Source of the DNA: a bacterium
Lineage (GTDB): Bacteria > Patescibacteriota > Minisyncoccia > Phycocordibacterales > UBA9973
Reading direction: 5' to 3'
Length of the DNA: 64,000 nt
Assembly: GCA_037127795.1 (NCBI GenBank)
Contig: JBAXXQ010000001.1
Location: forward strand, 144,252-208,251
The notes beneath the pieces are model-generated. The model was not told the DNA's origin. It saw only the letters and a program-made list of their open reading frames with translations, and searched no databases. The stretch's first letter is position 1, and each line of letters starts with the position of its first letter. Of this stretch, positions 14,676 through 51,260 are shown piece after piece. A program made the position numbers and the translations under genes.

Positions 14676-15493
14676 TTACCGTTATACAAGCAGCATTTTT
14701 AGGATTATTACAAGGTGTTTCTGAATTATTCCCAGTCTCAAGTTTGGGGCATAGTATATTGTTTCCAAAATTGTTCGGATGGAATATTTCTCTTGATGCT
14801 CCAAATTTTTTGAGCTTCATTGTATTAACCCACCTTGCAACAGCGCTCGTATTGCTCGGATTTTATTGGAAAGAGTGGTTTATGATTATTCGCGGAGTAT
14901 TACAGCGTGATGTATTGTATACAAAACTTTTGACATTACTTGTTATTGGGACAATCCCTGCGGGATTGTTGGGATTAATTTTTGAACACAAACTTCGCGC
15001 ATTATTTTCTACAACATGGATTGTGAGCGTGTGTCTTATTTTGAATGGAGTATTTTTGTTCGCCATAGAAAAATACAAAGGTACAAAAGTAGCGAATAAA
15101 AAAATAGAGACATTGAGTTTCTTGCAAGCATGCAAAATCGGAGTATTGCAATCATTTGCATTGATTCCTGGATTTTCTCGTTCAGGATTTTCTATGGGTG
15201 GGGGACTTATCGAAGGGCTCGACCATAGCCAAGCGGTACGATTTAGTTTTTTGCTTGCAACACCTATTATACTTGCAGCATCAGTACTTGAAATACCAAA
15301 ACTTTTTCATCAGCAAGATATTGCACAAAAGAGTATTTCAAGTGGAAGTCTTTTTGTAGGGGTTGTATGTGCGGCAGTAGGGGCATATGTTGCGGTACGA
15401 TTTTTGGAAAAATTTGTACAAACAAAAAACCTCAAACCATTTGCGTATTATTGTATTGGATTTGGATTTTTAGCCGTGTTTTTACTTAAATAA
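14672..15493 (+). CDS. uppP: undecaprenyl-diphosphatase
   Basis: LLQGVSELFPVSSLGHSILF and FSRSGFSMGGG are BacA/UppP signatures; overlaps the ATPase stop by 4 nt. Confidence 0.85.
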   Translation: MITVIQAAFLGLLQGVSELFPVSSLGHSILFPKLFGWNISLDAPNFLSFIVLTHLATALVLLGFYWKEWFMIIRGVLQRDVLYTKLLTLLVIGTIPAGLLGLIFEHKLRALFSTTWIVSVCLILNGVFLFAIEKYKGTKVANKKIETLSFLQACKIGVLQSFALIPGFSRSGFSMGGGLIEGLDHSQAVRFSFLLATPIILAASVLEIPKLFHQQDIAQKSISSGSLFVGVVCAAVGAYVAVRFLEKFVQTKNLKPFAYYCIGFGFLAVFLLK

Positions 15494-15496
15494 AAA

Positions 15497-15510
15497 TTGT
15501 GGTAGTATAG
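15497..15510 (+). promoter_or_regulatory. extended -10 promoter (TGG-TAGTAT) for the ileS leader
   Basis: ttgtggtagtat; the same TGGTA(G/A)TAT element recurs before rplJ, the surface-protein leader, S6, lemA and the uvrD-like gene. Confidence 0.5.
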
Positions 15511-15692
15511 GGTATAAGCGTTGAGGGAATATCACTCCTGAGCTTTGGGAAGAACACGAAAGTAAGTAGAACCCAACGGGTATGCTCGATATAGCTGTAA
15601 TAAGTCCAAGTAATTGGAGAACCAAGGTGGTACCACGAGAAAGCTCGTCCTTGCATTACATTGTAATGTAGCGACGAGCTTTTTATTTTTAT
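15510..15692 (+). ncRNA. T-box riboswitch leader (Ile specifier AUC)
   Basis: Specifier-loop-like gaatAUCAcuc; T-box sequence aattggagaaccaaGGTGGTACCACGag with UGGU bulge (discriminator A); terminator aaagctcgtc...gacgagcttttt directly before ileS. Confidence 0.7.
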
Positions 15693-15716
15693 AAGTATAA
15701 ATTTACATAACAACAT

Positions 15717-18700
15717 ATGTCAGAAAACACCAATAATCAAAAATCAGCAGCAGCACTTCGAGAAGAAAAAGTTCTCGAGTTTTGGAATAGTCAAAATATT
15801 TTTGAAAAATCTTTAGATAAAAATAAAGATGGCGCAGAGTTTGTATTTTATGAAGGACCACCGACAGCAAATGCAAAGCCAGCGCTTCACCACCTCGAAG
15901 CACGAGCATTCAAGGATACACTACCTCGCTACAAGACAATGCAAGGATTTCATGTGCGCCGCAAAGCTGGATGGGATACGCATGGTCTCCCGGTAGAATT
16001 GCAGATTGAGAAAAAACTTGGATTGCAATCTAAAAAAGATATTGAAACATTTGGTGTTGCAAAATTTAATGCAGAGTGTAAAGAAAGCGTGCACGAATAT
16101 ATTGGTACCTGGCAAAATTTTACAGAGCGCATGGGGTATTGGGTGGATTTTGAGGATGCGTACTATACGTACAATCCGCAATATATGGAGTCGCTTTGGA
16201 GTATTGTAAAAAAAATTTCTGACCGTGGGCTTTTGTACAAAGACTATCGTATTGTGCCGTGGTGTGCACGATGTGGTACTGGGCTTTCAAGTCATGAGCT
16301 TGCGCAAGGGTATGAAGATGTAAAAGATCTTTCTGTGACAGCTAAATTTAGATTGGTAGGAGAAGAAAATGTGTATATTCTTGCGTGGACAACAACACCA
16401 TGGACCCTTCCAGGAAATGTTGCACTTGCAGTGGGGGAAGATATTACGTATGTACAAATAAAAAAGGATACAGAATTTTTGATCCTTGCAAAAGAACGTC
16501 TCAGTATTATAGAAGGGGAATATGAAATAATAAAAGAAATTACAGGATCTGATCTTGCAGGACTTTCATATGAACCGTTGTATAAAATAGATAATATAGA
16601 GCATGCATACAAGATACAGGTTGCAGATTTTGTAACTACTACAGATGGTACCGGTATTGTGCATATTGCGCCTATGTATGGAGCAGACGACTTTGGTCTT
16701 GCAACAAAAAATAATTTACCAAAAGTACACACCGTGGATGATAGTGGTCACTTTATTGCAAGTATGACACCAGAATTTTTACAAGCGCGTTTTGTAAAAA
16801 CAGAAGATGTTGCAATTGATATTATCAAAGATCTTGCACATAGAGGATTACTTTTCAAAAAAGAAAAATACGAGCACTCATACCCACATTGTTGGCGTTG
16901 CAAAACTCCGCTTATTTATTACGCGCGTGATTCTTGGTATGTGCGTATGTCGAGTCTTCGTGATGATTTGATTAAAGCAAATGAAGGTATCAATTGGAAT
17001 CCAAACCATATCCAAGATGGTCGTTTTGGTGAATGGATTCGTGAAGTAAAAGACTGGGCATTTTCTCGAGAGCGATACTGGGGTACACCGCTTCCTGTAT
17101 GGACCAATGCAAACAATGAATTGCTTGTGGTGGATTCTATAGACACCCTCAAGTCATATACAAAAAAGTCTGGCAATGAATACTTCCTTATGCGACACGG
17201 AGAAACTATTCACAATGTTGCAGGAACATGGAATTGTAATATAGATAACCCAGATGCACTCACTGATGCAGGGGTACAAGGTATCGTGCAATCAATCAAA
17301 AATAGTGGACAATCATTTGATATGATCATTGCGTCACCATTTTTGCGCACACAAAAAACTGCACAAATAGTGGCGAGCGAGCTCGGTATGGCGCAAGACG
17401 TGATACTTTCTGATGCGCGTATTGCAGAGTGGAATGTAGGTGCAGAGTTTGATGGTATGCCTATGGAAGAATATTTTTCTATTCGCAATGCACACACAGA
17501 TAGATATGAATACAAAGTTGCAGACGGGGAATCATATGCTGATGTTGTAAGACGTACTGGAGAATTTTTGTATGAAATAGAACAAAAATACGCTGGTAAA
17601 AAAATCTTGATTGTATCTCATGGTGCACCACTTCGCGCATTGGAGCTTCACACTAAAGGAATTTCTTTTGAAAGTCTATTCAAAGACAGTCGTGAATATA
17701 GGAATTTTGATAATGCAGAAATTCGTCATATCGATTTTACTCCATTACCACACAGTGAAAAATATGAAATTGATTTGCACCGCCCATATATAGATAGTGT
17801 ATCTTTGATAAAAGATGGTGTGGAATACAATCGTGTCAAAGAGGTGATGGATGTGTGGTTTGATAGTGGTGCTATGCCGTTTGCACAAGAGCATTTTCCA
17901 TTCAATCAAAATATATTATATCCAGCTGATTTTATTTCAGAAGCTATCGACCAGACTCGAGGATGGTTTTATACATTGCTTGCGGTGGGGACACTCATGG
18001 AGCGGGGAAGCCCTTATAAAAATGTAATTTGTCTTGGGCACTTGCTCGACAAGGACGGCAAAAAAATGTCTAAGTCTATAGGTAATATCGTAGAACCGTT
18101 TGAGCAAATGGAAAAGTTTGGTGTAGATGCAGTACGATTTTGGATGTATAGTGTGAACCAGCCAGGAGAGAGTAAAAACTACGATGAAAAAAGTGTTGCA
18201 GAAATACAAAACAAAGTATTCTCTCTTACTTACAATGTACTTTCATTTTATGAAATGTATCGTGATCAAAATCTTGAAAAAGATCTCACTGTTGAAACAC
18301 TCAATACAGATAATGTGCTCGATGATTGGATTATTACCAAGCTCAATATACTCGTAAGTAGTATGACAGAGGATTTAGATAATTTTGAATTGTTCCGCCC
18401 AACGCGCGCTATAAAAGATTTTATCGATGATCTTTCTACATGGTATGTTCGTCGTTCACGAGACAGACTCAGAGATAATGATGTTGATGCAAAAAAGGCT
18501 TTGTATGTAGTTCTCAAAACACTCGCACAGCTCTTTGCACCATTTGCACCATTTACCGCAGAAGATCTTTGGCAAAAATTGAAAACTGAAAAAGACGAAC
18601 TATCTGTACATTTGTCTGTATGGCCAAAAGCGGGAAGTGTAGATATTGCTGTAATAGAAGAAATGGAAAAAGTCCGAACTGTATGTACAGAAGGAAATGC

Positions 18701-30609: not shown

Positions 30610-30810
30610 ATGAAACAAGATTATTTTAACGCAAACAATATTCGCTTTATCGACTACAAAGATATTGAGAATTTGAAGCGATTCACCAATCCAAACGGTC
30701 GAATCCTTCCTCGTAAGCGTACAGGCCTCACTGCAAAGAACCAACGTTCTCTCGCAGAAGCTATTAAAAGAGCTCGCTTTATGGCATTGCTCCCATACGT
30801 AGCAAACTAA
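30610..30810 (+). CDS. rpsR: 30S ribosomal protein S18
   Basis: [51 protein letters not shown]. Confidence 0.9.
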
Positions 30811-30825
30811 TTGTATACGTAATAA

Positions 30826-30858
30826 AAAACCTCCGTCATTTGACGGAGGTTTTTTATT
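30826..30858. terminator. bidirectional terminator between rpsR and efp
   Basis: aaaaaacctccgtcatttgacggaggtttttta, with A/T tracts on both sides. Confidence 0.75.
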
Positions 30859-30865
30859 TTATTAC

Positions 30866-31461
30866 TTAGAAACTAGAACCAACACGTTCTGAGTATTCAC
30901 CAGTTTCGGTATTTACTCGGATAGTCTCACCGATATCGATGAAGAGGGGAACGTTTATGGTTGCACCTGTTTCAAGTGTTGCTACTTTGTTGCCACCTGT
31001 TGCGGTGTTACCTTTGATACTTGGTGGAGCATCAGTTACCTTGAGCTCTACTTTGATAGGTGTTTTTACACCGATAGCAATTTCTTCATCATCTTCATCT
31101 GTGAAGACAATAAGCTCTATCTCACTATTTGCTTTGATGAATCGCATTTTGTCTCCTGCGATTTCAGCTTTTATAGCAAAACGCTTACTAGGGTCTTTGA
31201 TTTCAGAGCACCATACTTCACCTTTTGCAGTATAAAGGTATTTGACCATCTTGTTTGAGATGTCTGCTTCTTCTACCTTTTCTGATGATCCGAATGAGAT
31301 TTCTGCAACACGTCCTGTAAGGAGGTTTTTGATCTTTGTTGCATTAACCGGTTTTCGTTGTTGTTTGCGGAACACATGTGAAGAAATAACTTCATATGGT
31401 GCACCATCATACATAATAATCTTTCTTTCGCGTACTTCGTTGTATTCTAACATTGCCATAG
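30866..31461 (-). CDS. efp: elongation factor P
   Basis: MAMLEYNEVRERKIIMYDGAPYEVISSHVFRKQQRKPVNATKIKNLLTGRV; start placed at the MAMLEY Met for a typical EF-P length. Confidence 0.9.
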
Positions 31462-47240: not shown

Positions 47241-47997
47241 AGTCCCACTTATGAGTAATACGAAAAACAAGCGTTCAAAACAGGGGTAACCCCGCAAGAG
47301 AATCTTGTGGCCGCCCCCAAAAAGGGCGGTTTTCGTATCACAATTAAGAATATGTCTTTTGACAAAAAAATCCTGTCACTTAGTGGAAACTCTTTAATAA
47401 GGGGGACTGCAGGTAATAAGTAGACAGACCTTCTGAAAACACTCCAAGTGGTTGGAGAAGTAGGAAGTAAAATTGATTTCTAGATTTCCTAATAGGAAAT
47501 AAGAGCATATGGTGGATGCCTAGGTTCTACATGGCGATGAAAGACGCAGTACGGCGAGCGATACGCTTCGGGGAGGTGCCTAACAACCTTTGATCCGGAG
47601 ATTTCTGAATGAGGAAACTCTATCAAGTAAACCTTGATAACTACTCTGCATAAGACAGACTAGAGCGCACCCAGGGAAGTGAAACATCTCAGTACCTGGA
47701 GGAAAAGAAAAAAATGTGGTGTATACCACAACATTCCCCGAGTAGCGGCGAGCGAAAAGGGAGGAGCCCAAACCTCTATCTTCGGATAGGGGGGTTGTAG
47801 GATAGAAACGTCGTTTTACGGAAAGAGTGAAAAAATTTGTGTATAGAAAAAGTTGTTGGAAACCAACGTCATAGCAGGTGATAGCCCTGTATTCGAAATG
47901 CACTTATCTCTTTTGTTTCTATTCCTGAGTACTTCAAGACATGAATAGCTTGAAGGAATCCGCCAGAACTAACTGGTAAGGCTAAATACATTGTAGA

Positions 47998-48037
<40 letters not shown>

Positions 48038-49491
48038 AACTCCGAGAGGAGGGTGAAATAGTACTGAAACCATATGCTTACAAGGAGTCGGAGCGGTTGC
48101 TTGCAACCGTCACGGCGTGCCTATTGAAGAATGAGCCAACGAGTTTATATATGTTGCAAGGCTAAGTGCAAAATGCATGGAGCCGAAGCGAAAGCGAGTG
48201 TGAAAAGCGCGTCCACTTAAGTGTGGGAAGTATCATGTATAAGACCCGAAGCCAGGTGAGCTACCCATGAGCAGGGTGAAGTGATTCGAAAGAATCATGG
48301 AGGCCCGAACCGGTTTGTCGTACAACGCATTCGGATGACTTGTGGGTTGGAGTGAAAAGCTTATCGAACCTGGTAATAGCTGGTTCTCTCCGAAATAGCT
48401 TTAGGGTTAGCGTCATGTGTTCCCCTTGGGGGTAGAGCACTGGAAAGTTTCGACAGGGAGCAATCTCGCGAAATTTATCAAACTCCGAATACCAAGGATT
48501 AAAAACATGGCAGTTAGACTACGGGGGCTAAGCTCCGTCAGTCAAAAGGGAAACAGCCCAGATCTCTAGTTAAGGTCCCTAAATATAGACTAAGTGCAAA
48601 CGAAGGATGTGAGATTTCTTCGACAATGAGGAAGTTGGCTTAGAAGCAGCCATCTTTTAAAGAAAGCGTAACAGCTCACTCATCAAGAGATCTTGCGCCG
48701 TAGATAATCGGGGCTAAGTCTATTACCGAAACTGAGGGCCCGACTAGAAGAAGAGCGGTAAGCAATAGCTTGCCACCCTCCTTCTGGTCGGGCGGTAGGA
48801 GAGTATTCGTATCTGCTGTGAAGGCGAAGGCGTGAGCCGTGCTGGAGCGTTACGAAGTAAGAATGTTGGCACAAGTAACCACAAGGAAGGTGAGATCCCT
48901 TCCCGCCGAAAAACCAAGGTTTCCAAAGCAACGATGATCGTCTTTGGGTTAGTCGGGTCCTAAGCTGATAGCGAATGCTGCAGGCGATGGACATAAGGTT
49001 AATATTCCTTAACTTCTTTCATATTCGATGGAGGGACGGAGTGTAGTACATACTGCAGATAATTGGATTTCTGTTTGTATACCGCGTATGGAGGATAGGT
49101 AAATCCGTTCTCCTGACTTTAATGTCACTATCAGGTATGCATCGTCATCTGGTACGCCAGATTAAGAGTATGGAGCACGCTTCCAAGAAAAGCTTCTAAG
49201 ATTAGTATGAGAGAACCCGTACCGCAAACCGACACAGGTGGTTAGGTCGAGAAGACCAAGGCGAACGAGTGAGAGATCCCCAAGGAACTCGGCAAAAAAG
49301 CAGCCGTAACTTCGGGATAAGGCTTGCCGGCAGAAATGTCGGCCGCAGCGAAAGTATTCCTGGCAACTGTTTATCAAAAACACAGCTCCCTGCGAACACG
49401 AAAGTGGATGTATAGGGGGTGACACCTGACCAATGCCAGAAGGTTAATTACGGATGGTGCGATTATATCAAGCTGATCTGTACAAGCCCTG

Positions 49492-49526
<35 letters not shown>

Positions 49527-49734
49527 TCTGTTTTTCAATTTCGATTGGAAGGCAGAACGGACTAGGACCGCGTATAGAAAACGATAAACAATTTAAAAGA
49601 ATAATCATTACATTTCAAGCTACCTAACATGTCGTAATACATGTTTAGTCCATTGTGATTAACGAGAGACCAACGTCACAGACCCGAACTCGCAAGAGAG
49701 GGTTAAGAGAGAGTCCAACTGAGAGGAATAGTTG
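49527..49734 (+). ncRNA. intervening sequence in 23S at E. coli position L1931 (putative small group I intron, no ORF)
   Basis: Exon reads ...ggtcctaaggU | insert | AGCGAAATTCCTTGTCGGGTAAGTTCCGAC...; the 5' exon ends in U and the insert ends in G (ttG), as expected for group I splicing; L1931 is a known intron homing site. Confidence 0.55.
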
Positions 49735-50395
49735 AGCGAAATTCCTTGTCGGGTAAGTTCCGACGCGCACGAATGGTGTAATGACTGGGAAACTGTCTCG
49801 GGGATTTGCTCGGTGAAAATACAGTACCGGTGAAGATGCCGGTTACCTGCAGTTAGACGAAAAGACCCCGGAAGCTTTACTACAGTTTGGTATTGGGTAT
49901 ATTTGTTTGTTACGTAGCATAGGAGGGAGACTTTGAAGCGCGCATTTCGGTCCGCGTGGAGTCGTCAGTGAAATACCTCTTTTCAAATGGATATATCCTA
50001 ACCACTACGGAAAAAACGCAGTGGGACAGTGCCTGATGGGTAGTTTTACTGGGGCGGTATCCTCCAAAAGAGTAACGGAGGAGTTCAAAGGTTAGCTAGG
50101 CGCGAATGGAAACCGTGCCGATAGTGCAATGGCATAAGCTAGCTTGACTGTAAGTCGGCCATGACGAGCAGGTGCGAAAGCAGAACATAGTGAACCGACA
50201 ATTCGCATTAGATGCGGTTGAAGATTAACGGATAGAAGCTACTCCGGGGATAACAGGCTAGTTCCGCCTAAGCGTCCATAGCGACGGCGGAGTTCGGCAC
50301 CTCGATGTCGGCTCACCTTATCCTGGGGCTGGAGAAGGTCCCAAAGGTTTGGCTGTTCGCCAATTAAAAAGGTACGCGAGCTGGGTTCAGACCGT

Positions 50396-50770
50396 CTAGG
50401 AATTAGAAAAGTGTGCAATTTTATTGTACTTCAAATCTGATTTCTAGATCGTCTGAATCCCGAGGAGAGTGAAAAAGAAAGAAAATTACAAAGATTTATT
50501 AAACATTATGTTTTAGTCTTTTCGTCTAATATAAGTAAAGTTCATATACAGGAGTATATGAAAGAAAGATAGAATAAAGAGAACCATCTTAATACGGCGG
50601 TCGTCTATGGTGACATAGAATGACATGCTCGACTGATATCGGTGAAACCCCCACAGGGGGGTAATACCGAGGGAACTATAGCAATATAGACCCGTAGAGA
50701 CTACACGTTGAGGTGCTTAGAAATAAGTACAAGATATAGTCCGATCCATACAGTAATGTGTGAAAAGATG
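50396..50770 (+). ncRNA. intervening sequence in 23S at E. coli position L2593 (putative group I intron, no ORF)
   Basis: Exon ...gagctgggttcagaccgU | 375-nt insert ending ...aaagatG | CGTAAGACAGGTTGG...; the AT-rich 5' half and GC-richer 3' half contain no ORF. Confidence 0.55.
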
Positions 50771-51147
50771 CGTAAGACAGGTTGGTCTCCTATCTACTGC
50801 AGGCGTTGATGATTGAGGAAGTTCGTTCCTAGTACGAGAGGACCGGAATGAACGAACCTCTGGTGTATGGGCTCTACCGCCAGGTGGATTGCCCAGTAGC
50901 TATGTTCGGAATGGATAACCTCTGAAAGCATCTAAGAGGGAAGCCAGTTCCAAGATTAGTCATCGTTGAGGGCCGTGAGAGATGATCACGTTGATAGGCA
51001 CTATGTGGAAGCGCAGTAATGTGTTAAGCAGAGGTGTACTAATTGCCCAATTCCTATTAGGAAATCTGGAAATCAACCCATTCGCAAGAATGGTTCAGAA
51101 AATTAGATTGTAGTGTATACTACAATCGCAAACACATTTGAGTGCTT

Positions 51148-51260
<113 letters not shown>

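Follow-up and report, generated by a model that had tools for sequence, protein, structure and literature searches.

A predicted ultrashort-Stem-I T-box coupled to an intrinsic terminator in the ileS leader of Patescibacteria

Ultrashort T-boxes and the ileS leader

Ultrashort (US) ileS T-boxes were reportedly described by Sherwood, Grundy and Henkin in 2015 in Mycobacterium smegmatis, M. tuberculosis, and Nocardia farcinica, and the structures 6UFG and 6UFM are said to represent them. As at the locus considered here, the gene regulated by the actinobacterial US ileS T-boxes encodes a type-2 IleRS. The class is marked by a much shortened helical element whose terminal loop carries the Specifier, always precedes ileS, and always responds to tRNA-Ile (10.1101/2023.02.28.530422). 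Both this class and T-boxes with a short Stem I in general are described as translational and mostly actinobacterial (PMC7583486; PMC11297988; 10.1101/2023.02.28.530422). Transcriptional T-boxes, according to two of these texts, generally need a long Stem I, and docking of the tRNA elbow speeds tRNA binding ahead of polymerase (PMC7583486; PMC11297988). A terminator-type platform behind an ultrashort Stem I that has no elbow platform is therefore unusual.

The window analysed here, by which we mean the whole 64-kb stretch of DNA, carries an ileS gene whose leader occupies the gap between the stop of uppP (a BacA/UppP ORF) at 15493 and the ileS ATG at 15717. Judged from the published class descriptions, this leader resembles the actinobacterial US ileS T-boxes in its short Stem I with a terminal-loop Specifier, in having no double-T-loop elbow platform, and in its position before ileS with an Ile specifier. 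Both also have a Stem II with an S-turn, followed by Stem IIA (in the leader with a possible IIB), Stem III, and the UGGN bulge. The leader differs from them in that a predicted intrinsic terminator ending in a U-tract takes the place of the Shine-Dalgarno (SD) sequestrator, that the host belongs to Patescibacteria/CPR and has an SD-less genome, and that about one-third of the CPR relatives have dropped Stem IIA/B and Stem III. Like the canonical members of RF00230 (e.g., Bacillus subtilis tyrS and Staphylococcus aureus ileS), the leader stands ahead of an aaRS gene and has a K-turn at the foot of Stem I, a Specifier followed by a purine, the Stem II S-turn, Stems IIA and III, an antiterminator whose 7-nt bulge holds the T-box sequence, and a terminator with a U-tract that competes with this antiterminator; unlike them, it lacks ~71 nt of the distal part of Stem I, where the AG bulge and the distal loop would be, and holds its Specifier in a terminal, not an internal, loop. 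The glyQS T-box, the minimal one among the well-studied transcriptional T-boxes, is likewise a compact element with a terminator/antiterminator switch, but its composition is the opposite, with a long Stem I and an elbow platform and no Stem II or IIA/B according to the reviews.

The locus has the core features of a T-box. The distal platform and a score above the Rfam cut-off are the canonical-family features that we did not find, and the sequestrator platform and the host phylum are those by which the locus departs from the ultrashort class. On its sequence, the element is best filed as an ultrashort-Stem-I T-box coupled to a predicted intrinsic terminator in Patescibacteria. We found no earlier report of a T-box in CPR/Patescibacteria in a literature coverage that was incomplete and included few subscription journals, and an earlier description is possible.

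Architecture of the leader and its family

In a permissive Rfam search of positions 15400-15760, RF00230, the model to which the first-pass annotation had pointed, matched 15512-15655 of the plus strand over model positions 1-219 with 57.0 bits. The E-value was 5.2e-12 on this 361-nt region and 9.1e-10 for the 64-kb window searched on both strands with all 4227 families; the match is accordingly significant, but its score lies below the curated gathering score of 93 bits. Held against the refuting outcome named in the first-pass annotation, the lack of a significant RF00230 match, the result is formally ambiguous, with an E-value of 1e-9 to 1e-11 for a score under the cut-off. No T-box was reported by the default search of the whole window at the curated Rfam thresholds, which returned only 23S and 5S rRNA, and the gathering score of RF00230 was reached by none of 20 relatives. 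The low score is explained by the missing distal Stem I module: in the alignment, 76 Stem I consensus positions are reduced to 5 nt, with ~71 nt of distal Stem I gone, and the other modules (the base of Stem I, Stem II with GAA/AGUA, Stem IIA, Stem III, and an antiterminator with GGUGGUACC) all align. Because of this loss, the silence of Rfam at the gathering threshold, in the window as well as in the 20 relatives, is not evidence of absence. A permissive Rfam search of the whole window detected no second T-box besides that of the ileS leader.

Elsewhere in the window, the 23S rRNA gene (47489-51062) is 3574 nt long as compared with 2925 nt for the model, a group I intron-like match lies within it at 50578-50763 (49.6 bits, just below the gathering score of 50), and the 5S rRNA gene follows the 23S gene at 51151-51259. 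No 16S rRNA gene was found in the 64 kb, nor any tRNA gene in the 64-kb window or in the 60 loci scanned, and with neither a 16S nor a tRNA gene in 64 kb the rRNA genes appear to be unlinked. A weak match at 30778-30872 to the Rfam family BSnc120, a Brucella sRNA (36.3 bits against a gathering score of 114; E 6.6e-05), is probably due to chance.

The features assigned to the leader are collected in Table 1. A string check located every sequence quoted in the first-pass annotation: aattggagaaccaaGGTGGTACCACG at 15612-15637, with UGGU at 15628-15631; aatATCAc at 15528-15535, in which AUC covers 15531-15533 and the following A is 15534; and aaagctcgtc...gacgagcttttt at 15640-15684.

Table 1. Positions of features in and around the ileS leader (numbering of the 64-kb window unless a related locus is named).
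Feature	Position	Strand	Basis or remark
Probable extended -10 promoter, TGgTAGTAT	15500-15508	+	TGnTAnnnT motif
Ultrashort Stem I	15516-15545	+	Rfam alignment, RNAalifold, covariation
Stem I C-stem, 3 bp	15517-15519 with 15542-15544	+	RNAalifold, covariation
K-turn	3-nt GUU bulge 15520-15522; tandem G.A/A.G pairs 15523-15524 with 15540-15541	+	
Stem I 4-bp helix	15525-15528 with 15536-15539	+	RNAalifold, covariation
7-nt terminal loop, AUAUCAC	15529-15535	+	
Specifier AUC with 3' purine A15534	15531-15534	+	Ile codon; would pair with anticodon GAU
Stem II	15545-15576	+	Lower helix 15545-15549 with 15572-15576
Stem II S-turn	GAA 15552-15554 opposite AGUA 15565-15568	+	Matches RF00230 Stem II positions
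Stem IIA(/B) region	15577-15596	+	IIA hairpin 15577-15580 with 15585-15588
Stem III, 5 bp with GUAA tetraloop	15605-15618	+	Folds alone at -4.6 kcal/mol, z -4.2; RF00230 Stem III position
Antiterminator	15623-15653	+	A1 15623-15627 with 15649-15653; A2 15635-15639 with 15644-15648
T-box bulge UGGUACC, 7 nt	15628-15634	+	UGGU complementary to tRNA 3' ACCA end
Predicted intrinsic terminator	15640-15690	+	19-bp hairpin 15640-15682, one C.C mismatch
U-tract, UUUUUAUUUUU	15680-15690	+	Ends 26 nt before ATG
ileS, type-2 IleRS, 1117 aa	15717-19070	+	Pfam tRNA-synt_1, Anticodon_1, His_Phos_1
Reduced T-boxes of relatives	L036:1248-1358; L041:1252-1362; L042:1338-1451; L066:1217-1329; L004:1344-1456		111-114 nt, Stem I to antiterminator end

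The K-turn (GA motif) at the base of Stem I fits by sequence, and UGA...GA is conserved in the alignment. Compensatory changes were seen at all seven pairs of the C-stem and the 4-bp helix, with 92-96% of the cells paired among 60 sequences. AUC occupies positions 3-5 of the loop and is followed by A, the same layout as that of an anticodon in its own loop. The loop reads NNAUC[A/G] directly in ~43 of the 60 leaders, and in most of the others AUC comes after a small inserted hairpin. Throughout the 60 leaders AUC and its purine are near-invariant, whereas the two 5' loop bases vary, which is the pattern expected of a Specifier. The AUC-purine specifier of the first-pass annotation is thus retained and conserved, but the loop that carries it is the terminal one of a short hairpin and not an internal Specifier loop. 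The distal Stem I platform (an AG bulge and a distal loop whose interdigitated T-loops dock the tRNA elbow) is absent from the leader in the RF00230 alignment.

Stem II ends in a 2-bp helix closed by a GAAA loop; its AAGAA...AGUAGA is nearly invariant in the relatives, and its lower helix shows compensatory changes at five of five pairs (95.4% paired in the 60-sequence alignment). Stem IIA is paired in 96.7% with compensatory changes at three of four pairs. Two candidate pairs of a IIB pseudoknot, G15584-C15595 and C15585-G15594, are both nearly invariant with one compensatory change each, and at the third candidate pair, which 24 of 39 sequences can form, the window has U.U. Stem III is variable or absent among the relatives.

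Folded singly, Stem I, Stem II, and Stem IIA were thermodynamically no better than shuffles. The minimum free energy (MFE) fold of the whole leader recovered the terminator, but it paired the 5' end with the T-box region and missed the 5' domains, and was dropped in favor of the covariation-supported fold. Since the 5' domains were missed in this way, it is covariation that supports the helices of Stems I, II, and IIA.

Relatives were retrieved with the IleRS protein; all 384 are labelled as Patescibacteria/CPR MAGs (Nomurabacteria, Paceibacterota, Minisyncoccia and similar), and 80 of them, with identities of 54-80%, were kept. In 57 of the 80 loci, ileS is preceded by the core motif GGTGGTACC[AG]CG. 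RNAalifold, applied unguided to 15 leaders, returned Stem I, lower Stem II, Stem IIA, and the bulged antiterminator, with compensatory changes in 13 of the 24 pairs of the consensus. A covariance model (R1) built from this 15-leader alignment gave 60 matches, one at 15516-15654 of the window (112 bits) and one each in 59 of the 80 loci, all of them upstream of ileS and on the ileS strand. In the resulting 60-sequence alignment, which was fitted to the model and so leans towards the structure, standard pairs fill 95.2% of the cells as compared with 29-55% when the partners are slid by 1-3 columns; compensatory changes occur in 19 of 25 pairs, and the observed values were reached on no measure by any of 500 shuffles. 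The independence of RNAalifold and the slid controls argue that the covariation signal is real despite the model-fitted alignment. A MAFFT alignment of 31 compact leaders, in which Stem I elements with 6-nt and 7-nt loops were out of register and the variable middle was scrambled, was discarded and replaced by the covariance-model alignment.

We have hardly any doubt that the ileS leader is an Ile-specific T-box: the significant full-length RF00230 match, the independent RNAalifold consensus, and the covariation across 60 leaders all bear out this proposal of the first-pass annotation. As far as these sequences tell, Paceibacteria-like CPR genomes carry the T-box element as a family-wide trait. 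A minus-strand ORF at 15486-15716 (76 aa) was rejected as a real gene and treated as mechanical, since the compensatory changes point to selection acting on the structure of the RNA.

The downstream gene was confirmed as ileS by the Pfam domains tRNA-synt_1 and Anticodon_1, and the best solved relatives of its product are 8c8w and 1ile. It had also been called domain-inserted, in agreement with the His_Phos_1 domain that Pfam finds within the product: this histidine-phosphatase domain (PF00300; E 1e-27) covers aa ~490-675 and divides the catalytic domain in two. All 80 related loci have the inserted segment (32-68% identity), which is therefore a lineage-wide feature. As the window and the 60 loci scanned hold no tRNA gene, the cognate tRNA-Ile is assumed here to have the anticodon GAU and the discriminator A73, as bacterial tRNA-Ile generally does.

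Promoter, expression platform, and competing readings

The TGnTAnnnT motif recurs at one and the same distance from the model start (-17/-18) in 35 of the 60 homologous leaders, and in the window it ends 6-8 nt before the ATG in eight of 50 long ORFs as against ~0.85 by chance. It is probably the promoter signal of this genome, and the leader transcript would then probably start at ~15515-15517, with the first base of Stem I. A start at Stem I leaves no room upstream for a hidden distal element or a substitute for it. The placement of the motif near ATGs also suggests that many mRNAs of this genome may be leaderless.

On its own, the antiterminator folds into A1, the bulge, and A2 with -8.8 kcal/mol, and the A1/A2 pairs show compensatory changes (e.g., at the base of A2, AU in 41 and GC in 18). 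The T-box sequence with its UGGU bulge was correctly recognized by the first-pass annotation, as UGGUACC lies between A1 and A2 and is invariant in 59 of the 60 leaders. The terminator hairpin (-23.5 kcal/mol; z -7.7) prevails when both folds are allowed. Its 5' arm (15640-15659) holds the whole 3' strand of the antiterminator (15644-15653), which upholds the mutual exclusion of the two structures that had been proposed. The energies of both structures are within the ranges given by TBDB for transcriptional T-boxes (-7.4 +/- 4.2 and -19.5 +/- 7.9 kcal/mol). A hairpin with a U-tract was found in 58 of the 60 leaders (median -24.4 kcal/mol), in each case starting in the 3' strand of the antiterminator and ending at most 2 nt from the U-tract; the U-tract rule used here is satisfied by chance at ~1% of positions in the related loci. 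In the first 20 kb of the window, intrinsic terminators of the AAAGC...GCTTTTT style number 36 against 11.5 +/- 2.8 in shuffles, a three-fold enrichment. A standard terminator scan of the window did not call the 15640-15682 hairpin because of its internal C.C mismatch.

No SD sequence was found in or after the hairpin, and GGAG or GAGG occurs upstream (-20 to -4) of only one of 50 long ORFs in the window. In a genome almost without SD sequences, an SD-sequestering platform has no target. It is likely, judging from the leader sequences, that this T-box works by transcription termination, and termination may be the sole platform open to an SD-less, largely leaderless genome.

A translational T-box, as in the actinobacterial ultrashort ileS class, with the 15640-15682 hairpin acting as a sequestrator that blocks ribosome loading, is improbable. 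Its Stem I architecture is that of a class described as translational, and in ~20 relatives the AUG lies 8-19 nt past the start of the U-tract, where the hairpin could also hinder 30S binding. Against this, the hairpin contains neither an SD sequence nor the start codon, a U-tract follows it directly in 58 of the 60 leaders, and the genome is essentially SD-less and enriched in intrinsic terminators of the same style. The window ATG is 34 nt past the last pair (15682), which also bears on the terminator that had been annotated immediately before the ATG: the hairpin and its U-tract are there, but not directly adjacent to the start codon.

Taken together, positions 15500-15716 very likely form a complete transcription-attenuation unit for ileS, as predicted from their sequence. 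The steps proposed below follow the established T-box mechanism (PMC7583486), from which we infer tRNA binding, charge sensing, the start, and termination. [quoted passage not shown] This module would capture the GAU anticodon of tRNA-Ile without elbow contact, and the codon-anticodon helix would be propped up by the Stem II S-turn. If the tRNA is uncharged, its 3' ACCA end would pair with UGGU and stabilize the weak antiterminator, so that polymerase could read on into ileS. With a charged tRNA, or with none, the much more stable 15640-15682 hairpin would seize the 3' strand of the antiterminator and, together with the U-tract, would stop transcription before the ATG.

The leader might instead be a decayed T-box remnant that has become a constitutive partial terminator or a spacer after the loss of distal Stem I. 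A module reported to be essential in the studied transcriptional T-boxes is indeed missing, and the score is below the Rfam cut-off. However, the same truncated architecture recurs in 59 loci whose IleRS proteins are no more than 54-80% identical, every helix is preserved through compensatory changes, and AUC and UGGUACC hardly vary; such a conserved truncated architecture with covariation points to purifying selection and not to decay. A constitutive terminator of -23 kcal/mol would, moreover, be harmful if this is the sole ileS of the genome. We consider decay very doubtful and retain the attenuation unit as the preferred reading.

UppP is encoded upstream of ileS in none of the 80 relatives, and the T-box is assigned to ileS for this reason. 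That the hairpin, ~150-200 nt past the uppP stop in an A/T-rich region, is merely the uppP terminator and the T-box-like motifs are coincidental has next to no probability, and is effectively refuted by the covariation, the family distribution (59 loci with the element, none with UppP upstream), and the absence of UppP, besides the whole-window E-value of 9.1e-10 and the promoter motif between uppP and the element.

Variation within the family and its meaning

About one-third of the leaders are without Stem IIA/B and Stem III. In these reduced T-boxes, the ultrashort Stem I and Stem II are joined to the antiterminator by a linker of ~15-19 nt, and the terminator follows (Table 1). No natural T-box shorter than ~111 nt is known to us. 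Deletion of the IIA/B pseudoknot from an actinobacterial T-box reportedly lowered tRNA binding ~1200-fold, according to a review. No T-box match at E <= 0.01 was obtained in 15 of the ~74 loci with usable upstream sequence. The T-box-less loci (e.g., L002, L010, L018, L055, L064, and L074) keep the domain-inserted ileS and include both loci labelled as Zambryskibacteria.

In four leaders (L053, L060, L061, and L070), a small hairpin is inserted 5' of AUC, so that the terminal loop becomes an internal Specifier loop. GC-rich mini hairpins (...CGUCCG-loop-CGGRC...) were observed in the Stem I region of these four and of L013, L046, and L001. The points of insertion of the mini hairpins vary among the Specifier loop, the Stem I/II junction, the Stem II loop, and the antiterminator loop. 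L001, the closest relative (80% IleRS identity), has two of them that the window lacks (Stem I region at L001:1235-1290). Stem IIA/B, Stem III, and a mini distal hairpin are each present in some leaders of the family and missing from others, and this graded set of naturally minimal T-boxes could serve structural studies and the engineering of small tRNA sensors.

On balance, we slightly favor the view that Paceibacteria-like CPR harbor an undescribed T-box lineage that uses transcription attenuation without elbow contact and, in about one-third of cases, also without IIA/B and III. If these elements are functional, the need for an elbow platform for fast tRNA binding in transcriptional T-boxes would not be general, and it would be actinobacterial biology, not a mechanistic rule, that ties an ultrashort Stem I to translational control. 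A short Stem I and translational control, which have been treated as linked, appear here separated, and the family would provide a natural test of the kinetic role of elbow docking. The locus points to riboswitch sensing of tRNA charge in a CPR/Patescibacteria genome, in a group of which the curated Rfam thresholds miss every member tested. With one T-box in 64 kb, it suggests that ileS, possibly alone, keeps amino-acid-responsive control in a very reduced genome.
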